20,000 bases of DNA from IMG/VR virus record IMGVR_UViG_3300011114_001057, one strand, 5' to 3'. Positions 9,339 through 20,000 of this stretch are shown one piece after another. Source of the DNA: an uncultured virus (IMG/VR IMGVR_UViG_3300011114_001057) (taxonomy: Duplodnaviria > Heunggongvirae > Uroviricota > Caudoviricetes). The notes under the pieces were generated by a model. The model searched no databases and had not been told where the DNA came from. It saw only the letters and a program-made list of their open reading frames with translations. Position numbers and translations under genes: made by a program. Numbering within the stretch: the stretch's first letter is position 1; every line of letters begins with the position of its first letter.

Positions 9339-12300
9339 ATGCCAATTAGAATAAACCTAAAGGAAGTATTTCCATCCGACTCACAGGACATAACTGTTGA
9401 TAAAGTAAACTTTAATTTTAATAAATTGCTAGCGCTTGGAGTTGGCGACCAGGGAGACCAGGGTATAGCTGGTCCACAGGGAGCGGCTGGTCCAATCGGT
9501 CTTACTGGAATACAGGGTCTAAGAGGCAGTACGTGGTTTATCGATAATGGCGATCCAAATACGCTAACTTTTGTAGACCTAATAGATCAAGATCTCTATC
9601 TAGATACTATTACTTTTTCAGTTTGGCAATACGACGAATTAACTACCCTATGGACACAAGTCTTAAATTTCAGTACAATTGTTAATTATTACATATCACT
9701 AACGCCTTCCCCTTTTAATAGAGGCTTTGGTATCTTACCCACACAAGACGACAGGTTTATTACATTTAATCGTAGGGGAAATAACTATAGCAATTCAACA
9801 GGAGACATAACTAGAAGTAGCTTCAATACAGCAGACAGCGATATACTCCTATTAACCAACTTCAATGAAAGCACAATAGATACTGCGTTAGGCTTTAATA
9901 ACTTTCCAGCTTCATCTGGTGAAATGTTTGACGCTCTGTTAAAAGTATATGTAAACCACAGTGAAGGTACATCTGAGGTGACGGGTAGATACCATTTAGA
10001 ACTAGGCTCACTGTATTTAGATAATAGCATACCTAATGAATCCACCCTTTCTTTATTAAAACACAACTTAAAGGTTAAGTTTAAGAAGAATGAAGTCACT
10101 ACTACTGCAATACCTACAACCAATACTTGGATAAACATAGCGCAGTTTTCATTATCTGTGCCTGAACCTGACCCACTTTCTGGAATCGATGAAAATGGCA
10201 TATTTGAATTTGTGTCACCTAAATGGAACAACGAGAGCTCCCCTATTCAAGAAGAAGTACGTGTTTGGTTTGGAGCAGCTGAAGGACTTAGTGAGTATTT
10301 AGGTTTGCCCTACACTGAAATGGGCGACGGTATTGCAATAGGCGATTCAACAGGTACGAGTTTTGCCTCTATTGGAATCATGAAAGGCCTTAATTCTAAC
10401 TTTCAAACTCCATATACCAATGATGATTTTTTACTCATAAACTCTAGCGGTTTAGATGGAGTCTTTATCAATGATAAACTAGTACAAACAAATGGAACGC
10501 TTGACGTGATTCATACGACTGGGGCTAGGTTCGTAAGTAAGATAACTGCTGGTACAAACGATGCGAATGTCAACAAAGATCTATGTTCTATTTTTTCAAA
10601 TGCAAACCTACTTATCTGCACTTGGGCAGGCACACTAGCTGCAACCAATATTAGCCAAAACATGACTAAGTCTGGACGAATTAAGATACATCGACTAGAC
10701 TCTGACTTGTCTGTGCTTGTCAACTCAGCCAACACTTCTAATCATATTGACCCATTCCCTACAGATGATCATGGGCATACTGTCAAGCCTTTCCCTACGA
10801 CTAATTTAACCCATGTAGACGTAGTAGGAAAATACCTTTTTGCAACTAGGATTCGACCGCAAAATTACGTAGCTCAACTCGGTACCGATAATATTCAAGA
10901 TACCTTAATTATTGCTGAGCTTGATTCGTCAGCTGGCGCTTTGAAAACAGTTGGCGGTTGGGGTAATAATTATGATGTTGATGAATATTATGCTAAAAAA
11001 GTACAGGTAGTAGGCAACATTGCATACGTTCTTACTAGCAAAGCAATAACTACTGACTGGACTTCAACTGATTCTTATCTACATGCAGTGGATATCACTG
11101 ACCCGACTAACCCTGTGACACTAAGCCGGGTCACAACAATGAATGACCATAAATATTTAGACTTTACTATAGTTAATGAAAGAGCATTTATCTCTGCCTG
11201 GGATCAGTCAGCGCAGACTATTGATATTATCACGGTTGATATACATGACCCAACTAACTTAACTACTCCTGCTTCGTATACTGGTACGGGTATTACAGCA
11301 ACTGTTGAAACTCCAGCTCCAATAAAAGTAGATGGATATACCCTATATTTAGGGGCAGACAATTATCTTAAGATTTATCGGATAGATTATTCAGCGAGTT
11401 TAGATCTTACCGCAGTAGTTAGCACAACCGCTGTCTTTAGTCCTATTACTTATAGAATCAGTGATATTGTAATAAACGGAGATTACGTGTATATAGCTGG
11501 CGAATACCTTGACAGTCACAGGCTGCTTACTTTTGATGTAACTGACCTAGCTGCTCCAGTATTTGTCGGAGAAGAGACATCAAATACTGGAGCGTCTGGG
11601 AAGATGACACTTGTTGGAAACAAACTATATCTTGCTAGTTCTCAAGGCACAGGCGCATATTCAGCAGTAGACGGTGGTCTTTCTGAATATGAGATAGACG
11701 GTATAACTTCACCTAGTGCAAATATCTCAACACTAAAATCAAATGAAATAAAAGTTTCAAACAGCCTTTATGTTGGAAAAAAACTAGATGTTGGTAATTC
11801 CATAAATGTAGGTAGTGGTGGACTCTATATTGACGAGGGTGTAGGGCTTGCAGTCGATGGACCAGTTAAGATCTTAGGTAATCTAGAAATGAATGGAGAA
11901 ATAACAAAAATAGCAAATGCAATTGCGTTTGGTAAAACACAAATTTATATCAATGCATTTCAAGACGATAACTTATTTTCAGGCTCACCGTTTAGTCCCG
12001 TTCTTTACCCTTATTATGAATTACCGGGTTTTAATTCATCATATTTAGAAATTTATATAGGTTGGAGTGGAGACACAAATACATCAAGTATTAATGCTAA
12101 TAAAATACCTGACAACATCTCAATAATATTACCTAAGATCTCTACAGAATTTTACGAAGGACAGAGACTTACAGTTCGTATAATTGCTCTACCGTGTAGA
12201 GCATATCAATCATCAACACAATGGAATTGGCCAACAACCGCTGGCGCAACTGCCGGTACAATACAATTATGTTCAGCAATAGAAGGTGATGCTGGTGGTG

Positions 12301-12524
12301 CTGCTCCTTACCAAAAGGAAATCATTAATTTCACAATCTCTAATCCAACTCTTAATGCAAGTGAAGTTTACGGAAAAGAAGCACTAATAGAATTAGTTTA
12401 TACGAAAGCAGTAATAGTTGCAAGACAACAGACTGGCACAAGTACGTACGTTGATTACACATATAGCGATTATTGGAGAGTAATAAGTTCAAGTGTCTTA
12501 CCTTTGACTGTTGATAATACTTAA
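9339..12524 (+). CDS. Tail fibre / receptor-binding-like protein with collagen repeat and LVIVD-type beta-propeller repeats (1061 aa)
   Basis: A short N-terminal anchor-like segment (LKEVFPSDS...DKVNFNFNKL) precedes 9 Gly-X-Y triplets. LVIVD-like repeats follow (VDVVGKYLF, VQVVGNIAYV, VDITDPTNP, VDIHDPTNL, VDGYTLYL, VINGDYVYIA, FDVTDLAAPVFVG, LVGNKLYLA). Next comes a beta-shaft-like repeat (SLYVGKKLDVGNSINVGSGGLYID) and a distinct C-terminal domain. Confidence 0.75.
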   Translation: MPIRINLKEVFPSDSQDITVDKVNFNFNKLLALGVGDQGDQGIAGPQGAAGPIGLTGIQGLRGSTWFIDNGDPNTLTFVDLIDQDLYLDTITFSVWQYDELTTLWTQVLNFSTIVNYYISLTPSPFNRGFGILPTQDDRFITFNRRGNNYSNSTGDITRSSFNTADSDILLLTNFNESTIDTALGFNNFPASSGEMFDALLKVYVNHSEGTSEVTGRYHLELGSLYLDNSIPNESTLSLLKHNLKVKFKKNEVTTTAIPTTNTWINIAQFSLSVPEPDPLSGIDENGIFEFVSPKWNNESSPIQEEVRVWFGAAEGLSEYLGLPYTEMGDGIAIGDSTGTSFASIGIMKGLNSNFQTPYTNDDFLLINSSGLDGVFINDKLVQTNGTLDVIHTTGARFVSKITAGTNDANVNKDLCSIFSNANLLICTWAGTLAATNISQNMTKSGRIKIHRLDSDLSVLVNSANTSNHIDPFPTDDHGHTVKPFPTTNLTHVDVVGKYLFATRIRPQNYVAQLGTDNIQDTLIIAELDSSAGALKTVGGWGNNYDVDEYYAKKVQVVGNIAYVLTSKAITTDWTSTDSYLHAVDITDPTNPVTLSRVTTMNDHKYLDFTIVNERAFISAWDQSAQTIDIITVDIHDPTNLTTPASYTGTGITATVETPAPIKVDGYTLYLGADNYLKIYRIDYSASLDLTAVVSTTAVFSPITYRISDIVINGDYVYIAGEYLDSHRLLTFDVTDLAAPVFVGEETSNTGASGKMTLVGNKLYLASSQGTGAYSAVDGGLSEYEIDGITSPSANISTLKSNEIKVSNSLYVGKKLDVGNSINVGSGGLYIDEGVGLAVDGPVKILGNLEMNGEITKIANAIAFGKTQIYINAFQDDNLFSGSPFSPVLYPYYELPGFNSSYLEIYIGWSGDTNTSSINANKIPDNISIILPKISTEFYEGQRLTVRIIALPCRAYQSSTQWNWPTTAGATAGTIQLCSAIEGDAGGAAPYQKEIINFTISNPTLNASEVYGKEALIELVYTKAVIVARQQTGTSTYVDYTYSDYWRVISSSVLPLTVDNT
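9444..9527 (+). repeat. Collagen-like (Gly-X-Y)9 repeat within the tail-fibre-like gene
   Basis: Translates as GDQ GDQ GIA GPQ GAA GPI GLT GIQ GLR G. Confidence 0.9.
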
Positions 12525-13324
12525 ATCCATTGATTTAAGTTAAATGGCATGACTCGGTCAGCCACCAACAATTCCTGCAACTCAGATATCAAATTAGGAT
12601 CAAGATTAGAGTCTTTAGAGATAGCTGCATTTAGCACAAGTAAATCTTTTATAACAGTTGCTGTTGCAGTCTCCTCCCTATTATGAAGTATTGCAAAAAG
12701 TACGTTCTCCTTCTCTCGCATTCCGCTAAGTGAACTTATGTTTTGCTTAATTATCTCTTCCCTTAGTGTAGCATTATCTGCGAATACTAATCTCAATGAT
12801 TTTAATCTTCTAAAAGAAAAACCAAAATCCTTCTTCTTATCGAACGTTAGTTTCCAAATCACATATCGGTTAGTATTTATGCAATTCGTTATTATGAATA
12901 TCTCTTTCTGTTGATGCAGCTTAGGATTAACAAAGAAGATCTCTGAGTTATCTAGAAAGTAGTTTTGAGCTTCCATATAGTCGATCAGCAAGCTTAAAAA
13001 AACAAAATTAGCATTCCTAAATATCTCTATAGTTTCTGAGGAATTATCTTCATATATCTTCTTTAGGTCTTCTCTTATCTTCTTAATTCTATCCTCCTTC
13101 CAGACCGGATTCATCTTAAAGTCAAAAAGATTTCCTTCAACTGCTAGTGTGTTTAGGTTTAAGCTGTGAAATAGGACCTCATAGAAATAGGAAAGATCCC
13201 CTTCTTCAAGGTCTTTTTTGTATTTTTGAGCAGCTGCAAGAAGTACATAACTAAAGTATTCAGAGTCCATAAATCTTGCTTTAATTAACCACAGTGAATC
13301 CAATATTTCCTTTCTTCTAGTCAT
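12521..13324 (-). CDS. Hypothetical protein (267 aa)
   Basis: The ORF exactly fills the gap between two + strand genes. It has an ATG start with an AT-rich upstream region, and its stop overlaps the tail-fibre stop in TTAA. No recognisable motif; the N-terminal half looks helical. Confidence 0.75.
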   Translation of the reverse strand: MTRRKEILDSLWLIKARFMDSEYFSYVLLAAAQKYKKDLEEGDLSYFYEVLFHSLNLNTLAVEGNLFDFKMNPVWKEDRIKKIREDLKKIYEDNSSETIEIFRNANFVFLSLLIDYMEAQNYFLDNSEIFFVNPKLHQQKEIFIITNCINTNRYVIWKLTFDKKKDFGFSFRRLKSLRLVFADNATLREEIIKQNISSLSGMREKENVLFAILHNREETATATVIKDLLVLNAAISKDSNLDPNLISELQELLVADRVMPFNLNQWI

Positions 13325-13406: not shown

Positions 13407-15548
13407 GTGCAGACTACTGTAAAACTATTAATCGATTCTCAGAATAACTCTTTGACCTTTAGTAAGAACTTTAGGATCTTCTCTACTGATGAGCCTATCA
13501 CAGGAATCATTGAATTTACTGAGTTTATCGAGGACCTGATATATGGTTCACCTAACATAATTGACCTAGCTAATCTAATTAGAAAAATACGATATTCTAG
13601 GAATAAGCTTGACTGGTCACTCTGGTATACTGTTGCTCCTGGAAATATTGGAGACTCAGCTAATATGATATTAGATTCAGCTGATCCTTTCTATTTTCAA
13701 GTAAGATACGAATACGATGATGGCACCACCGATCAATTACCTGATCTTATTCAAGTAAACGAAATAAAACTTAGGTTTAAATCTTCTCCTGGAACACTAG
13801 ATGTTTTTGCGCCTAAAGTAAAGTGCTCAAACGAGACCTATTCTTCAATAATTGCCAATCGTGATCCTAGTTTTAGACCATATGAGGTAGACAGTGCAAT
13901 TACCATGTTTAAAGACCTATCTTTCTTTACTAATCAGATATATGGTCACCAAGTAGTCTATTTTAGAACACTACCTGAATCAGATAGCGGCGATTATGTA
14001 TTTAAAGAGTGGACTCTATATAAAAACGTAGATCGTAAGTGTATTAAAGTAATGGTGCCCGGTAATACTTTTCCAGAAAACACTCCAAAATATACTGAGT
14101 TTGGCCTAGACTTTCAGGTGCCGTTTGAGATACACCTAGACCATAAGTATTTTCAATCTATTTTTGGATCCTGTTCAGAACCTAGGAAAAGAGACTTTTT
14201 GTATTTTCCACTACTCAATAGAATGTATGAAATCCAAGGATCATACTTAAGTCGTGGGTTTATGATGGAACCAGTCTTTTGGAAAGTTCAACTTAAGAAG
14301 TTCAGTCAAAATATTGATATGCTTCTTACTGACACAAGTAGAAGCTTCCTAGATAACGTAATCGTAAATGCTGACCAACTATTTAGTGATGAAGTAGAAA
14401 AAGATATTAAAGACAGCACAATGCCTGCACAATATCAAAAAATAACAACAACTTTTGATTCTTCAAGAAAAGCAATACATCCAGACGTGATACAGAGACC
14501 TTTGAAATATACCTTTAATTTTGCACCACTCATTGAAAATTATTATGACTTAGGCGGGGTTCCAGCAAACGAGATAACTGCTGAATTGTTAGCAACATCA
14601 CCTTTACTTTCTACTACTCAATCGCTAGAACAACTGCCTAATTTAGACAGCTCTTCTCTTCCTTCAACCGCCGTTATCATTGCCTATGAAGGCAGCCCTA
14701 TCTACACTACTTGGAGAAACAATGGATTACTAACAAACGACAAAAACGTTAAGGCTTCTAGTTTTAGATACTGTCGAGTTAGGGGACCGTTTGATAGTAT
14801 TTCAAACCACCAAGGAGAATCTGAAACTGGTAGATTTATCAGGATTGAGGCTTATCGAGACCTTAGTTTTAAAGATCCTAAAGATATTCTAACCGATATT
14901 GTATCTGGCAAGACCATTGTAAAATTTAAAGTAAGGGAGCCAGCTATCGTCTATTCTGCTACTCCTAAGTTTAACAACACAACTGATAGAAACTTAAGTT
15001 TTACCTGCCTATTCAATGTGCCATCAAGCGGTGGACCTATTAATTTTATCGATGGCTTCGATAGCGACAGTCAGTCTGGGATACAGATCACTGGTAACTT
15101 TACTAGATATATTAGCGCTGAGCCTGAAGGAGTATTGACCCTTAGTATAAAAGCCAATGCACAAGTAAAAAACTATTCTATTGCTAATTTTACAAGCGGT
15201 CAATGGCATGCACTAGTAGTCTCTATCTCTAATGAGTTTCTACAATGCGGAACCTATGTCTATAAAATAGTAGAGGATCCTAGCGACATCATAAATCATA
15301 GCGAGTTTGTGCCCATATTACAAAGTACCTCTTCTTTTTCTTTAACCCAGTTTGAAATAGACCAAAACTATATTTTACCTAACTCTAACTTGCTAATAAC
15401 TAATATAAGAGTCTTCAACACAATGTTAAAAGAAGAAGAGCACGATTTTATATTAAGCCAACAGTTCCTTAGAGATGAATCTATGCTTGTTTTAATCGAC
15501 AACTGTCGAGTACAGACTAATTTACCATATATCGTTAAAAATAGATAA
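13407..15548 (+). CDS. Neck/head-closure protein with a T4 gp14-like central domain, plus an N-terminal extension and a C-terminal LamG/ConA-like domain (713 aa)
   Basis: GTG start. The central region has the gp14-family pattern YGHQVVYF...FKE...FGLD...IHL..YF...EPRKRDFLYFPLLNRMYEI....F.....WKVQLKKF. The C-terminus has LamG-like GQWHALVVSIS and ITNIRVFNTML. It lies immediately upstream of a gp15-like gene, as in T4. Confidence 0.7.
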   Translation: MQTTVKLLIDSQNNSLTFSKNFRIFSTDEPITGIIEFTEFIEDLIYGSPNIIDLANLIRKIRYSRNKLDWSLWYTVAPGNIGDSANMILDSADPFYFQVRYEYDDGTTDQLPDLIQVNEIKLRFKSSPGTLDVFAPKVKCSNETYSSIIANRDPSFRPYEVDSAITMFKDLSFFTNQIYGHQVVYFRTLPESDSGDYVFKEWTLYKNVDRKCIKVMVPGNTFPENTPKYTEFGLDFQVPFEIHLDHKYFQSIFGSCSEPRKRDFLYFPLLNRMYEIQGSYLSRGFMMEPVFWKVQLKKFSQNIDMLLTDTSRSFLDNVIVNADQLFSDEVEKDIKDSTMPAQYQKITTTFDSSRKAIHPDVIQRPLKYTFNFAPLIENYYDLGGVPANEITAELLATSPLLSTTQSLEQLPNLDSSSLPSTAVIIAYEGSPIYTTWRNNGLLTNDKNVKASSFRYCRVRGPFDSISNHQGESETGRFIRIEAYRDLSFKDPKDILTDIVSGKTIVKFKVREPAIVYSATPKFNNTTDRNLSFTCLFNVPSSGGPINFIDGFDSDSQSGIQITGNFTRYISAEPEGVLTLSIKANAQVKNYSIANFTSGQWHALVVSISNEFLQCGTYVYKIVEDPSDIINHSEFVPILQSTSSFSLTQFEIDQNYILPNSNLLITNIRVFNTMLKEEEHDFILSQQFLRDESMLVLIDNCRVQTNLPYIVKNR

Positions 15549-15557
15549 CTAAGAATA

Positions 15558-16343
15558 ATGAAAAGATCAAACAACGAAAACATACGAAACAACAACTCAC
15601 AAGACGTCTTTTTAAGAAACGCTACTCTATCTCTATTGGATCTACTCAATAAGGAAATCATAATATATTTAAAAAGAGGAGATGAAGTTGAAGAACACGC
15701 TATTCCAATTTTTTACAACTTTGGAGGAGATGAAGGATTTATGAAAGACTTCTTCTTAGAGTTGCCGACTGACTGCTCTTATCCAAACTTTGCAGAGGGC
15801 AACTACGAACAGATGCCACGTGGAATAATAACACTAGATTCTTTTCAAATAAAAACAGCCGATCTTACTAACAAGTTTGTTAGGGGTAGCTTTAATCAGG
15901 AAACTCGCAATGAAAACAATCAAAAGGAGACCAAGGCTTACTCCTCAAGGTTATTTGTTCTTCCAATGAGTTTAACTTACTCAATGAAGATAGAGAGTGA
16001 TAATATCAATAAAACATTTAAGATAATTGAAAGGATTTTTGATTTTTACTATAAGAATCAGGTAAGATATTTTCAGTTTAGAGGGACCCGAATACCTATG
16101 CAGATAACCTTTCCAGAGACTGCACAGTTTCAAAAGAGTTACAGTTTTAGTTATAGTGATCAAAATACCGTAACTACTTCTCTTTCACTAGCCGTTGAGA
16201 CCTATTTTCCAAGCTTTGATGATCATTCTACCTTCTATAAAGGTAACAAAATAGACCAGTTTAACTTGCGACAGGGTCAAGCACAATCGGGTTCAACACT
16301 AGCTGATTCGTGGATAGACTCGGATTTTCCACCAAGCGAATAA
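15558..16343 (+). CDS. Tail sheath stabiliser / tail terminator, T4 gp15-like (261 aa)
   Basis: Size and motif order fit gp15: FLRNATLSLLDLLN, IPIFY, MPRGII, LPMSLTYSMKI, FKIIERIFDFY, LSLAVETY. It follows the gp14-like gene. Confidence 0.7.
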   Translation: MKRSNNENIRNNNSQDVFLRNATLSLLDLLNKEIIIYLKRGDEVEEHAIPIFYNFGGDEGFMKDFFLELPTDCSYPNFAEGNYEQMPRGIITLDSFQIKTADLTNKFVRGSFNQETRNENNQKETKAYSSRLFVLPMSLTYSMKIESDNINKTFKIIERIFDFYYKNQVRYFQFRGTRIPMQITFPETAQFQKSYSFSYSDQNTVTTSLSLAVETYFPSFDDHSTFYKGNKIDQFNLRQGQAQSGSTLADSWIDSDFPPSE

Positions 16344-16352: not shown

Positions 16353-16928
16353 ATGGAGACAAGACTCAAGACCTTTAATCAATATCTAGTAGAGAATCAA
16401 ATCTTTTCTGATGCCTTAAGATATCACATGGTAAACGGTTTCTCAGTGTTAGAATCAATCTATAGGCCAGGTAGTCAAGCCCATCTGGATCTTCTATGTG
16501 AGGCTAGGTGTGCGTTTAATCTAGGTAAAATAAAGTTTAATGGAATCGATCATACGCTTTTAGCTGAGACCGATATTGGCAATACTGGCACTTATCAAAA
16601 TAAGACAGTTGTTTTAGACATGCCGCTTGAGGTTTTAGAATTGAATGAGGCAAAGTCTCCTAAACTAAACTATCCTATGCGAGGAGGAGCCAAAAAGTAC
16701 CATGTGTATGTTAAGAATCCTCAAACTGGAAATATTAAAAAGATTTCTTTTGGAGATGTACACGGCGGATTAACTGCAAAAGTTAGTAATCCTAAAGCCA
16801 GAAAATCATTTGCAGCTCGACATAATTGTGCTGAAAAGAAGGACAGAACTAAAGCAGGCTACTGGGCTTGCCGAATTAATCGATATGCTCACTTATGGGG
16901 CGGTAAAACTTATCCTGGATTCTGGTAA
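16353..16928 (+). CDS. Two-domain putative internal head protein with a basic C-terminal domain (SFxARHNC...YWxC)
   Basis: The N-terminus METRLKTFNQYLVE resembles a capsid targeting sequence. An LNE at aa 97-99 precedes a K/R-rich domain (KKYHVYVKNP..GNIKKISFGD...RKSFAARHNC...AGYWAC), which I recognise as a recurrent viral domain of unknown function. Confidence 0.65.
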   Translation: METRLKTFNQYLVENQIFSDALRYHMVNGFSVLESIYRPGSQAHLDLLCEARCAFNLGKIKFNGIDHTLLAETDIGNTGTYQNKTVVLDMPLEVLELNEAKSPKLNYPMRGGAKKYHVYVKNPQTGNIKKISFGDVHGGLTAKVSNPKARKSFAARHNCAEKKDRTKAGYWACRINRYAHLWGGKTYPGFW

Positions 16929-16946
16929 TACTTAAAAAATAATAAT

Positions 16947-17564
16947 ATGAAACATATATTAACATATCATAAGCTATTTGAGAATGAGAATATGGAACAA
17001 TATACTCCATCTACTAAAACTATCATCACTGGCGGAGAAATTATACTCGCTAAAGATAAAAATGCTCCATTACTTATAGTGTATGGTGGCATACCAGTTA
17101 AAGGTGTAACTAGCGGTGTCTATATGTGGAATTATGTAGATAAATTAAAGGAAAAATACCACATATTTGTTGCATCAAGTCATAAAGTAAACGGGCCTGA
17201 TACTTATGAGACTGTGCTCACTTACCTAAAAAAATATGGAATAACACCTTCAAAAAAAGTGCTTTATCTTTTTTCAGGCGGGTATTCTCCAGGAATGAAA
17301 TTATTAGACACAAAAGCGGCTGATTTTTCAAAAGTATTATTAGTAGATATTTGGATGAAGGGTAAAACTATCTCTGATTTCTACATTAAATTTACTAATA
17401 ATAATAAATCAAAAGTTGAATACTATTATACTAGTTTTGGTGCAAACAACGACTCAGCTCGTGATGCTATTGCTAAGAGCGCAAGCGTTGTAAACACAAA
17501 AAGTAATCATATGGACACTAACTTATTAGCAGTCGACTCACTAATTAAAATGTATAACATATGA
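16947..17564 (+). CDS. Putative minimal alpha/beta-hydrolase-fold protein with a capsid-targeting-like N-terminus (205 aa)
   Basis: PLLIVYGG (oxyanion-strand-like), LYLFSGGY (nucleophile-elbow-like Ser), VLLVDIW (acid) and SNHM (His near the C-terminus) occur in canonical order. The N-terminus is MKHILTYHKLFE. Confidence 0.55.
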   Translation: MKHILTYHKLFENENMEQYTPSTKTIITGGEIILAKDKNAPLLIVYGGIPVKGVTSGVYMWNYVDKLKEKYHIFVASSHKVNGPDTYETVLTYLKKYGITPSKKVLYLFSGGYSPGMKLLDTKAADFSKVLLVDIWMKGKTISDFYIKFTNNNKSKVEYYYTSFGANNDSARDAIAKSASVVNTKSNHMDTNLLAVDSLIKMYNI

Positions 17565-17827
17565 ATGATTTACCTTTTACTGAGATCCAATTATCAAACG
17601 ACACATATATTCGTGAGTTTGTACAGTCTTCTGAAGCTGATGAGTTTAGGTGGCATCGAGACTATGAAGATCGCTTAATCGTTTCAATAAATAAAACTGA
17701 TTGGTTAATTCAACTTGAAAATAAGCTACCGCAAGAATTAAATTCAAAGGTATTAATAGAAAAAGGAGAATGGCACAGGTTGATAAAAGGAACCGGTAAA
17801 TTAAAATTAAAAATAGTTAAGTACTAA
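17561..17827 (+). CDS. Small cupin-fold protein (88 aa)
   Basis: Two His motifs, WHRDYEDR and IEKGEWHRLIKG, with cupin-like spacing. ATGA overlap with the upstream gene and TAATG overlap with the downstream gene. Confidence 0.65.
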   Translation: MNDLPFTEIQLSNDTYIREFVQSSEADEFRWHRDYEDRLIVSINKTDWLIQLENKLPQELNSKVLIEKGEWHRLIKGTGKLKLKIVKY

Positions 17828-18522
17828 TGAAGAATTTATTAAATTACAAACAGTACCTAATACTTGAAAAGGGTTCAGAGTCATGTCCAGTAGCAACTCA
17901 AAATCTAGAGGTAAACACTAGAAACCGCAACAAAGCAATAGAGGCAGACTACATTAAATATGGGCCACTAAACCTTACTGACGAGAAATATTGGGAAGAG
18001 TATGCTAAAAAATGGAATACTGAGCCAGAAGTTGCAAAGCAATCTAATTGTGGAAATTGTGTAGCATTTGATATTTCTCCAAGAATGCAAGAGTGTATGC
18101 CTGGAGAAGTTAGCGATCCTGATGGAAGACTTGGTTACTGTTGGATGCATCACTTTAAATGTCACTCTGCTCGTACTTGTTATACTTGGGCGGCAGGCGG
18201 ACCTATTGAAGAAGATTCAGTTTCAGCCGATTGGCAAAGTAAAAATGGTGGAGAAGTTAATGAAAAAAGAAAAACTAAAAACTCTCCAAGCTGGAAAGAT
18301 TCAGATGCACCAGATGCTAATGGAAAATTTAAAGAACTTGGAATAAAAGCACTTGCCGCTTGGCTGATCCGAACTAGAGGCGGAGACATGCGTAAGATTA
18401 CTGGAAGCCTAAACCAGCAAATAGTATTTAATCGAAACGATAATCCGGCATACGCTAAGAAGATGGAAAGTGTTAGAGCAGAAGTAAAAAGACAGCTTGG
18501 TAAAAAAAATAAAAAACAATGA
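17827..18522 (+). CDS. Two-domain putative internal head protein: Cys-rich HiPIP-like metal-binding domain plus a basic helical domain (231 aa)
   Basis: The N-terminus is MKNLLNYKQYLILE, followed by CGNC...C...GYCWMHHFKCHSARTCYTW. An internal VNE precedes a K/R-rich C-terminal domain. Confidence 0.6.
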   Translation: MKNLLNYKQYLILEKGSESCPVATQNLEVNTRNRNKAIEADYIKYGPLNLTDEKYWEEYAKKWNTEPEVAKQSNCGNCVAFDISPRMQECMPGEVSDPDGRLGYCWMHHFKCHSARTCYTWAAGGPIEEDSVSADWQSKNGGEVNEKRKTKNSPSWKDSDAPDANGKFKELGIKALAAWLIRTRGGDMRKITGSLNQQIVFNRNDNPAYAKKMESVRAEVKRQLGKKNKKQ

Positions 18523-18980
18523 TGCTTACCTTTAATCAATACTGCCTGCTTGAGAGCAAGAAACAAAAGGCTAATCCCAAAAACTATAAAGCTCCTGAAG
18601 GAAGTGCTAGAGATAAGAAACTAGATAAGGCAAAAGAACTAATTAAATCTGGCAATAAAGACGAGGCATATCGACTTAGGGATGAGATGGAGAAGGCTGA
18701 ACGTGAAAAAGCTGACTTTAAAAATACTCCACGTAAGGACTCTAAAGTCAATGAAGCTAAATCTCGCACGTTAAGTAAAGAGACGCTGGCTAAGATTAGA
18801 AAGGTTGCAACTAAGAAAGGATATTCGTTTGCTGACCTAAAGCGTGAATATATCAAAGGCTTAGGTGCATTCTATTCTTCAGGCTCCAGACCAGGAATGA
18901 CTTCTCATCAGTGGGCAATGGCTAGAGTAAACTCAGCAGGTCCAAGTAAATCTTGGGCAAATGTTAAAAAAGTAAAATAA
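18519..18980 (+). CDS. Two-domain basic putative internal head protein with a DUF5824-like C-terminal domain (153 aa)
   Basis: The N-terminus is MMLTFNQYCLLE, with an internal VNE at aa 77-79. The C-terminal LKREYIKGLGAFYSSGSRPGMTSHQWAMARVNS matches the G..A....G.RPG....QW..ARV.S viral motif that I recall as DUF5824. ATGA overlap with the upstream gene. Confidence 0.6.
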   Translation: MMLTFNQYCLLESKKQKANPKNYKAPEGSARDKKLDKAKELIKSGNKDEAYRLRDEMEKAEREKADFKNTPRKDSKVNEAKSRTLSKETLAKIRKVATKKGYSFADLKREYIKGLGAFYSSGSRPGMTSHQWAMARVNSAGPSKSWANVKKVK

Positions 18981-18983
18981 AAT

Positions 18984-19532
18984 ATGCTACTTAACGTAAG
19001 ACAAAATGGATTTCTATTTTCGTTTCCGCCAGATTTTTTTGCACCTGAAATAAAAGAAAAATATAAACCTTATTTTCAAAGTCTAATCTTACCGTATGAT
19101 ACAATTGAAGACTTTATGTCCTCAACCATACAATCAATCAATTGGCCAGGCTGGACTATGCAGACCGTTCCTCAGACTCGTATATTAGGTAAGCAGCAAG
19201 AATACAAAAGCTCAAAACAGGTAATAGACCAGTTTGTTAGAGAATTTACAATAACCTTTAAGATGACTGACGCTTATCTAAACTATTTTATCTTTTTAGA
19301 AAACGGTTTAAAATACCTTGATTTTCAGAATAAAGCTAGAACGTTTTCACCGATGCGACTTTCTTTACTAGATAATGAAGGCTATTTAGTATCTTCAATA
19401 ATCTACAAGGAACCTATCCTAGTCTCACAAGACGGTTTTAATCTTTCGTACAGCTCGTCTACTCCTGATTTTAAGACCTTTACTGCAAAGTTTTCATACT
19501 TTACTTTTGATATTGAATTAGATTTTAATTAG
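18984..19532 (+). CDS. Tail-tube-fold protein, T4 gp3-like tail completion/tube terminator (182 aa)
   Basis: The pattern IQSINWPG...FTITFKMTDAYLNY...LSLLDNEG...IIYKEP..S...LSY....FTAKFSYFTFDI and the size are typical of the gp3/gp19 tube fold. Confidence 0.6.
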   Translation: MLLNVRQNGFLFSFPPDFFAPEIKEKYKPYFQSLILPYDTIEDFMSSTIQSINWPGWTMQTVPQTRILGKQQEYKSSKQVIDQFVREFTITFKMTDAYLNYFIFLENGLKYLDFQNKARTFSPMRLSLLDNEGYLVSSIIYKEPILVSQDGFNLSYSSSTPDFKTFTAKFSYFTFDIELDFN

Positions 19533-19545
19533 TAGATATAATAAC

Positions 19546-20000
19546 TTATATAGATCTAAAGTAATTTATGAATTTAGTTATATCGTCTGACCACATCAAC
19601 ATAGCATTATCCCTTATCTTCTGTTCATCCCAATCCCACCAAGCAATACTTTGTAGACTTTCTATCTGATCATCAGTAAATCTTTGCTTAACTTGTTTAG
19701 CGGGGTTTCCAGCAACTATTGTAAAAGGCAACACATCTTTTGTCACTACTGAACCTGCAGCAACAATAGACCCGTTACATATTCTAACGCCAGACATTAT
19801 AGTTGAATTAGCACCAATCCAAACATCATTCTCAATTACGATATCCCCTTTACATGTAGGGTGACCCATTGCCATATGCATATCAGCAATCTCACCAGTA
19901 ACCGGCCCTAAGAGCTGAGAAGAAGTTGTTATCCAATCTGGTCGATGGTTAGCATGTAGGAAGAAATTACAATCTCTACCTATTGAATTATATTTACCTA
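19546..20000 (-). CDS. CatB/Vat-related hexapeptide-repeat O-acetyltransferase (5'-truncated by the window)
   Basis: The frame stays open to the window end: GKYNSIGRDCNFFLHANHRPDWITTSSQL...KGDIVIENDVWIGANSTIMSGVRICNGSIVAAGSVVTKDVLPFTIVAGNPAKQVKQRF...WWDW. This has the left-handed beta-helix repeats, the NH catalytic His and the C-terminal WWDW of xenobiotic acyltransferases. The ATG at 19881 is therefore internal. Confidence 0.9.
   Translation of the reverse strand, partial: GKYNSIGRDCNFFLHANHRPDWITTSSQLLGPVTGEIADMHMAMGHPTCKGDIVIENDVWIGANSTIMSGVRICNGSIVAAGSVVTKDVLPFTIVAGNPAKQVKQRFTDDQIESLQSIAWWDWDEQKIRDNAMLMWSDDITKFINYFRSI

Follow-up and report, generated by a model that had tools for sequence, protein, structure and literature searches.

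Leader-bearing genes of an uncultured T4-like phage encode exchangeable modules joined at conserved, predicted prohead protease sites

The 20,000-nucleotide stretch of DNA analyzed here (the window; IMG/VR record IMGVR_UViG_3300011114_001057 of an uncultured virus) is a structural block of a divergent T4-like myovirus. Between its gp15 gene and a tail-tube-like open reading frame (ORF) lie five small plus-strand genes, referred to here as A, X, Y, B, and C. Gene A (16353-16928) encodes 191 amino acids (aa) comprising a short leader, an acidic N-terminal module, an LNE joint, and a basic C-terminal module containing Cys and His residues. Gene B (17827-18522, 231 aa) is built in the same order from a leader, an acidic Cys-rich N-module, a VNE joint, and a basic helical C-module, and gene C (18519-18980, 153 aa) from a leader, a Lys/Glu-rich N-module, a VNE joint, and a DUF5824 C-module. 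Gene X (16947-17564, 205 aa) also has a leader (MKHILTYHKLFE), followed by a single module with no internal NE joint, and searches of Pfam, PHROG, and NCBIfam gave no match to it. Gene Y (17561-17827, 88 aa) has no leader and gave no family match.

An earlier note on this DNA, made from the letters alone, had read A, B, and C as mini-polyproteins, each with a single [LV]NE site where the character of the chain switches. The three triplets are present, one per gene, and are predicted protease sites: LNE in A (16641-16649, residues 97 to 99; TTGAATGAG), VNE in B (18256-18264, residues 144 to 146; GTTAATGAA), and VNE in C (18747-18755, residues 77 to 79; GTCAATGAA). In two of the proteins, A and C, the chain goes on with AKS after the joint, as had been observed. 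The claimed switch in composition was likewise evident from the isoelectric points (pI). In A, the N-module (A-N; residues 15 to 99, 16395-16649, ending ..VVLDMPLEVLELNE) has a pI of 5.0 and the C-module (A-C; residues 100 to 191, 16650-16925, phrog_7595) a pI of 10.4. The values in B are 5.0 for the N-module (B-N; residues 15 to 146, 17869-18264), which contains seven Cys, and 10.6 for the helical C-module (B-C; residues 147 to 231, 18265-18519), and those in C are 9.7 for the N-module (C-N) and 10.7 for the C-module (C-C; residues 80 to 153, 18756-18977). The expectation of six small, mostly basic pieces thus held for four of the six, A-N and B-N being acidic. The 14 long ORFs of the window (6603 aa) contain six copies of [LV]NE, three of them in A, B, and C (575 aa together) versus about 0.3 expected from composition, a post hoc count that is modest by itself; the comparative data carry the weight.

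In the A-type alignment (A2, 46 sequences), E99 is invariant and [LIVMF]-x-E is present at the joint in 46/46 relatives (46 to 99% identity), with insertions and deletions on both sides; the variants seen are LNE, INE, MNE, IFE, IEE, VLE, IQE, LFE, and LLE. The B-type joint (alignment A1) reads [VIL]xE in 16/16 two-module relatives (VNE in six, VDE, VEE, VSE, and IEE in two each, INE and LNE in one each), and the C-type joint reads [LIV]xE before an LSKETLAKIR anchor in 38/38 distinct relatives (VNE in 23, VTE in 5, INE in 4, VDE in 3, LNE in 2, VYE in 1). These counts come from phylogenetically non-independent relatives, so that they overstate the number of independent events and are not probabilities. 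A conserved xxE at the junction, as a processing site implies, was found in the aligned homologues of all three genes. Since the hydrophobic residue (P3) and the Glu (P1) are held while the residue between them (P2) drifts, the pattern follows the rule of the T4 protease gp21 rather than a strict NE; the earlier motif was right about the Glu and too narrow otherwise, the real pattern being [LIVMF]-x-E with Asn merely favored at P2.

The position of the sites relative to the modules was then scored in distinct ORFs by taking the start of each C-module from BLAST coordinates and counting a copy if an [LIVMF]xE site ended within 5 residues of that start. For A-C (114 ORFs, 7 with the module N-terminal), 101/107 internal copies had such a site against a null of 0.256; for B-C (71 ORFs, 11 N-terminal), 54/60 against 0.169; and for C-C (47 ORFs, 5 N-terminal), 39/42 against 0.066. 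The A-C misses comprised two sites moved by inserts, one doubtful frame, and three siteless copies that form one divergent lineage (L069, L077, and L078). Five of the B-C misses were untagged copies starting with Met and one was a true exception (L297), and the C-C misses were two sites moved by Lys runs and one split gene, L201, in which C-N and C-C lie in separate overlapping frames. L201 was not accepted as clean evidence of a natural split, because its frame changes within a Lys-rich run, where a sequencing slip could be the cause.

As the earlier note had anticipated, the modules were also found apart from their present partners, with the boundary at the xxE site. All of the five module families examined by their neighbors have other partners too, always joined at an [LIVMF]xE motif, and three of the families are known as untagged stand-alone proteins as well, whose start falls immediately behind the would-be cut site (marked by a slash below). 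For A-C, a start-motif search found [LIVMF]xE before 49/49 internal copies, one of which needs a register shift of one residue, with E, T, P, Y, L, M, S, D, N, F, and Q at P2. Stand-alone, untagged A-C is represented by gp30 of the podovirus HTVC106P and by ORF21 of a Nitrosopumilaceae spindle-shaped virus, the latter starting M-AIYRGRKVTLNKP where myoviral copies read ..LEE/AEYQGRKVTLNKP. The module as such occurs in podoviruses, siphoviruses, and an archaeal spindle-shaped virus. H157, C159, C173, and H180 are invariant among the 46 sequences, suggesting that this very basic domain holds a small zinc site.

Directly behind a bare leader, B-C is preceded by [LIVMF]xE at the leader end in 17/17 copies of alignment A1 (e.g., ..FITE/ARKTK); it also follows at least six unrelated N-modules (..LISE/SKKPK, ..TMVE/GKRP, ..QVDE/GKKP, ..AVSE/KKR) and occurs as an untagged stand-alone protein of 82 to 85 aa starting M-AKEKRPEWKDSDAPDA. 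The untagged start M-AKEKRPEW.. corresponds to the jointed ..VNE/KRKTKNSPSW... B-N, for its part, is found alone behind a leader in proteins of about 136 to 150 aa that end a few residues past ..WQxKN, alone without a leader, and fused via ..LEE/, ..IEE/, or ..LAE/ to further small modules that are Cys-rich or basic (L031, L035, L039, L042, L065, and L071). Some GenBank phage records label B-N relatives as a high potential iron-sulfur protein (HiPIP), a label that was unconfirmed, with no Pfam match at an E value of ≤0.01 and, in a profile search of the PDB with alignment A1, no HiPIP chain at an E value of ≤1. In close relatives of the window, B-N has been lost with the break exactly at the joint: L300, whose B-C is 96% identical, has MKNLLNYRQYLIHEGEVNE/KRKTK, L304 reads ..FLILEE/KRKTK, and L305 has a deletion between two NLE[VL]N stretches. 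This exact loss supports the suggestion that the linkers allow domains to be shuffled between genes, a suggestion that fits C-N less well, as C-N was seen only with DUF5824-type partners.

The C-C module belongs to DUF5824 (PF19141), which matched residues 55 to 139 of protein C with 36.8 bits against a cutoff of 25 (E value of 5.1e-09). It was found alone behind a leader (L011, L017, and L019), behind another N-module in L020 (..EALNE/AKK) and L281, and in one chain with B-C (L273 and L277). In L020 and L281 a third module lies between C-N and C-C, with sites at both of its ends.

A-N at first seemed tied to A-C, a pairing also found in Flavobacterium phage immuto and Methylophilales phage Melnitz. 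A single-sequence locus scan had given only 6 close relatives, and a profile search was used instead, which retrieved 1036 clusters from 1.84 billion representatives at an E value of ≤0.001. Among the best 150 of these clusters, A-C comes next in 87; in 35 the module is followed by more than 60 residues without an A-C match, and 28 have under 60 residues after it (15 to 60 in 16, fewer than 15 in 12). In the same best 150, an [LIVMF]xE lies within 12 residues after the VPLD.P anchor of A-N in 131/134 cases, with Asn at P2 in 43/131 against a background of 15.5%. The proposal that each gene encodes two cargo domains is accordingly modified for A-N, which resembles a widely reused carrier or pro-domain more closely than it does cargo. 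Taken together, the joints are real conserved sites at true module boundaries, at which modules are gained, lost, and recombined.

The placement of the joints was also evaluated with AlphaFold2 (AF2) models. The model of A (46-sequence alignment) had a mean predicted local distance difference test (pLDDT) score of 77.6 and a predicted template modeling (pTM) score of 0.44, with confident blocks at approximately residues 11 to 90 and 100 to 185 and pLDDT values below 50 only at residues 1 to 6 and 94 to 99 (VLELNE). The A joint thus lies in a predicted flexible linker between two confident domains, as expected of a processing site. The same holds more weakly for B, whose model (72 sequences) was poor overall, with a mean pLDDT of 58.5 and a low-confidence B-N part; residues 141 to 163 had pLDDT values below 50 and no secondary structure, consistent with a disordered linker, and residues 167 to 230 were helical with pLDDT values of 70 to 90. 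Fold searches gave no names to these domains: Foldseek with the A model found no PDB match at an E value of ≤0.001, a wide VIA-align search gave a best Z score of 3.4, PDB sequence-profile searches with alignments A1 and A2 returned nothing useful, and ESM Atlas returned only unnamed viral clusters (0.89) for B-N.

The N-terminal leaders of A, X, B, and C are similar stretches of 12 to 14 residues ending in LVE, LFE, ILE, and LLE, respectively. The leader of A (METRLKTFNQYLVE, 16353-16394) reads ..KTFNQYLVE14, with LVE at residues 12 to 14, that of X ..TYHKLFE12, that of B (MKNLLNYKQYLILE, 17827-17868) ..NYKQYLILE14, and that of C (MMLTFNQYCLLE, 18519-18554) ..TFNQYCLLE12. In T4, the capsid-targeting sequence (CTS) is described as 10 to 19 residues long, with residues 4 and 7 serving targeting and residues 8 and 10 serving processing, which is blocked by Asp at position 10 (PMC9026906). 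The T4 protease gp21 is reported to cut Alt at two sites, ITE-6 and LTE-619, and itself carries LIE-9 (PMC5694885, PMC9026906). All four leaders were found to agree with the CTS in length, in the targeting positions (4/7), and in the hydrophobic residue and Glu of the processing positions (8/10). The N termini of the T4 internal proteins IPII and IPIII read MKTYQEFIAE/A (from NC_000866), and KTFNQYLVE of A aligns with KTYQEFIAE of T4 with the same aromatic-x-x-aromatic-hydrophobic-x-Glu spacing; the spacing in the C, B, and X leaders is one residue off this pattern. No T4 internal-protein family (IPI, IPII, IPIII, or Alt) matched A, X, B, or C in Pfam, PHROG, or NCBIfam, and we suggest that these proteins may work like internal proteins without being homologues of them. 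The idea of a shared targeting leader is thereby supported for A, B, and C, with one lineage of A-type proteins (L142, L150, L159, L241, and L244) departing from it, being leaderless (a stop lies just upstream) and yet keeping the joint. Five other relatives (L312, L317, L330, L332, and L252) have a small leaderless module (..GKRKLLGTHPT.EKAV.QL.AIE.SK..) fused in frame before a full leader-like ..LTFSQFVNE/, indicating that leader-like sequences can sit inside a chain.

The distribution of the tagged forms was compared with that of the S77 (gp21-type) prohead protease, PF03420. The protease was present in 8/8 contigs with tagged or jointed B-C and in 0/10 contigs with untagged B-C, four of the latter being at least 96% complete. 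Leader-bearing B-N was found with the protease in five contigs and without it in two fragments (26% and 52% complete), and untagged B-N without the protease was found in the fragments G029 (48% complete) and G030 (33% complete). Tagged forms therefore go with the S77 protease, which is present in the relatives G002 and G004. In G002 (176 kb, with a B 86% identical to that of the window), a 658-aa ORF (L206:15509-17485) begins with the protease; the rest of this ORF is repetitive and was taken as probable scaffold from its position beside the capsid gene, a Gp23-family gene that follows the ORF. The ORF matched S77 first, with a subthreshold hit to the giant-phage S80 family. An arrangement with the protease as the N-terminal part of a 577- to 718-aa frame with a repetitive tail was seen in 10 contigs of this lineage, and Kyanoviridae-like contigs have a protease of 205 to 230 aa. 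G002 contains 18 predicted genes with a leader-like N terminus, one of them probably a false hit, and the leader ends have Asn at P2 in 10/18 cases versus 8.7% of all [LIVMF]xE. Its protease-scaffold ORF contains 37 [LIVMF]xE in 612 aa, including 7 [LIVMF]NE (1.14 per 100 aa, versus 0.205 genome-wide). From this enrichment of Asn in both places, [LV]NE looks like a preferred site of this lineage's protease.

An indirect link to the virion comes from cultured phages. Mass spectrometry of cyanophage S-SCSM1 is reported to have identified 45 virion proteins, including an NMNAT (ORF91), and NMNAT-like proteins are also reported from two other cyanophage virion proteomes (PMC9602691). The GenBank record labels ORF91 as a virion protein, and its N terminus reads MKSFLQFLKE/AAE. 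The leader on a virion NMNAT supports the view that, in aquatic T4-like phages, such leaders act as virion tags, and it is silent on internal cuts. In the cultured phage Melnitz, gene 18 (L217:1525-3477), annotated as a hypothetical protein, encodes a 650-aa chain in which a leader, an NMNAT-like module (a nucleotidyltransferase), DUF5824, and an A-type unit are each separated from the next by [LIVMF]xE. The resemblance to S-SCSM1 lies in the CTS-like leader and in the NMNAT-like module being chained with DUF5824 and an A-type unit in Melnitz, whereas the window is without an NMNAT module.

The surroundings of the cassette are those of neck and tail genes. A neck-protein-like ORF (13407-15548; weak matches to PF11649 and phrog_679) is followed by the gp15 tail-sheath stabilizer gene (15558-16343; PF16724), and the cassette is followed by the tail-tube-like ORF (18984-19532; weak match). 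Look-alikes of gene Y lie directly 3' of an A-type gene in Melnitz (gene 19) and in immuto (gene 172), and relative to the gene order of these phages, X is inserted between A and Y in the window. A nucleotide search of a phage collection gave a single match, 190 bases at 69% identity to immuto. Elsewhere in the window, a plus-strand gene at 9339-12524 encodes a 1061-aa protein with a short collagen-like Gly-X-Y run near its N terminus and an LVIVD repeat match, probably a fiber; a 267-aa ORF without a family match lies on the minus strand (12521-13324) inside the otherwise plus-strand structural block; and a hexapeptide-repeat transferase gene (PF00132, E value of 1.1e-10; 19546-19998, minus strand) directly follows the tail-tube-like gene and runs off the window.

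We propose that the products of A, B, C, and the single-module X are made as precursors and that the proteins derived from them are carried within the phage head. The 12- to 14-residue leader, of the T4 capsid-targeting type, would bring the precursor into the prohead's scaffold core, and the S77 prohead protease would cut after Glu in [LIVMF]-x-E, removing the leader. The same protease would also cut the lone internal [LV]NE joint in its flexible linker, freeing the basic C-module of about 8 to 10 kDa from its N-terminal partner. The basic C-modules would then stay with the DNA and would probably be delivered with it, while the acidic N-halves of A and B may serve as carriers or as charge-masking pro-domains. 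For genes A, B, and C, we put the probability of loading by the leader together with cutting at the joints by the head protease at about 0.7. The mini-polyprotein reading is thus partly supported, in its joints, boundaries, linkers, and partner swaps, with its motif, the charge of its pieces, and the role of A-N amended. More tentatively, it is possible that A-N, ending ..VPLDLP-x-[LV]NE, is not cargo but an acidic loading domain or pro-domain which aquatic T4-like phages set before many cargos. It would mask or escort basic DNA-binding modules until the cut and, with the leaders, would form a grammar of carrier, cut site, and cargo for dozens of exchangeable injected proteins.

Several observations weigh against the proposal of loading and cutting. 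The S77 protease is not in the 20-kb window, the nearest record to the window (a 36-kb fragment) gave no match to it, and the nearest protease-bearing relative is 86% identical in B and 66% in A. Untagged B-N occurs in three protease-bearing contigs (G026 to G028), and in L072, on contig G030, B-N lacks a tag and is fused by way of an LEE linker. The leaderless A-type lineage keeps the joint, implying either that A-N itself targets or that the joint has another role, and the divergent A-like lineage and L297 do not have a canonical site. Glu-rich, acidic linkers inflate the chance rate of [LIVMF]xE, and the non-independence of the relatives, the poor model of B, and the restriction of C-N to one type of partner count on the same side. 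The T4-type late promoter TATAAATA occurs 0 times in the window versus 4.2 expected by chance, although its absence is uninformative because the phage is divergent.

The joints might alternatively be fusion scars, that is, remnant leader ends of fused leader-bearing genes, with only the N-terminal leader being removed and the proteins staying whole in the head. Fusion of tagged genes does happen, as indicated by whole leader-like stretches inside the fused chains of L303 (..SKILNYDDFLTE/NKKSP), L312 (..SIVLTFSQFVNE/RKK), and L124 (..WRFGEWVEINE/SSS), but a decaying scar is unlike a Glu kept in every A-, B-, and C-type relative while P2 and the neighboring residues change and indels build up, and the B joint retains the xxE alone and no other leader residue. 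Furthermore, a protease that accepts the [LIVMF]xE of the leader could hardly pass over an identical motif that lies exposed in a disordered linker. We therefore regard scars as a rather unlikely origin of the joints.

It is improbable that the proteins are not head cargo at all and act in the infected cell, with leader and joint serving another protease or as a cytoplasmic regulatory tag or interaction motif. This would suit B-N, which as a Cys-rich, possibly metal-binding module is odd as capsid cargo and is untagged in other T4-like contigs, and it would suit the missing late promoter. However, the leader fits the T4 CTS in spacing and residue classes, tag and joints co-occur with the S77 protease (8/8 versus 0/10), the protease-scaffold ORF is enriched in the same motif, the cassette is placed among neck and tail genes, and a leader-bearing NMNAT was found by mass spectrometry in the virions of a cultured cyanophage. 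That three [LV]NE triplets simply happen to lie between regions of differing composition is scarcely credible, short as the motif is and post hoc as its count in the window was, since the site is conserved over hundreds of relatives and module boundaries coincide with it.

Capsid targeting and processing in T4 is the textbook example of a phage sending proteins into its host together with its DNA, and it has already been put to use for protein delivery. The principle is thus known from T4, and folded modules strung together and shuffled at protease sites would be a new variant of it. The genes studied here resemble those for T4 IPI, IPII, IPIII, and Alt in the short leader pattern, the S77 protease in relatives, and the small, mostly basic, fast-changing putative cargo, and Alt is reported to have a second cut near its C terminus, at LTE-619 (PMC5694885). 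They differ in having two or more unrelated folded modules per precursor, with internal sites, recombined among genes and phages, as well as in showing no similarity to the mature internal proteins and favoring Asn at P2. Several [LI]-x-E cuts in one head protein are also described for the T4 core and scaffold proteins gp22, gp67, and gp68 (PMC5694885, PMC9026906), and the protease-scaffold ORF of G002 is likewise rich in [LIVMF]xE. The fragments of gp22, gp67, and gp68 are mostly cleared as peptides, whereas the pieces here are folded domains with stand-alone homologues. The giant phages phiKZ and SPN3US are reported to package many proteins, and their ejection and inner-body proteins to carry long N-terminal propeptides (over 100 residues) that the S80 protease removes by cutting after Glu (PMC5694885), and A-N could be a domain-sized pro-domain of this kind. 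In contrast, the giant-phage S80 motif, Ala/Ser/Gly-x-Glu, was not encountered, every joint counted having a hydrophobic P3 (L, I, V, M, or F) as in T4, and the protease here matches S77 first, in genomes that are T4-like in their major capsid protein (PF07068) and neck genes. A full-text literature search, covering titles and the starts of abstracts outside the subscription journals, found no description of modular cargo precursors.

If the joints are cut, abundant uncultured aquatic myoviruses would be using the T4 route on a larger and more modular scale, with small folded modules placed on shared precursors, swapped at protease sites, and left untagged in phages that have no such protease. 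One outcome would be a sequence rule by which virion cargo could be predicted from the genome alone, and another would be natural sets of linkers and leaders for packaging foreign proteins. Hundreds of small basic proteins would then become candidate injected factors.

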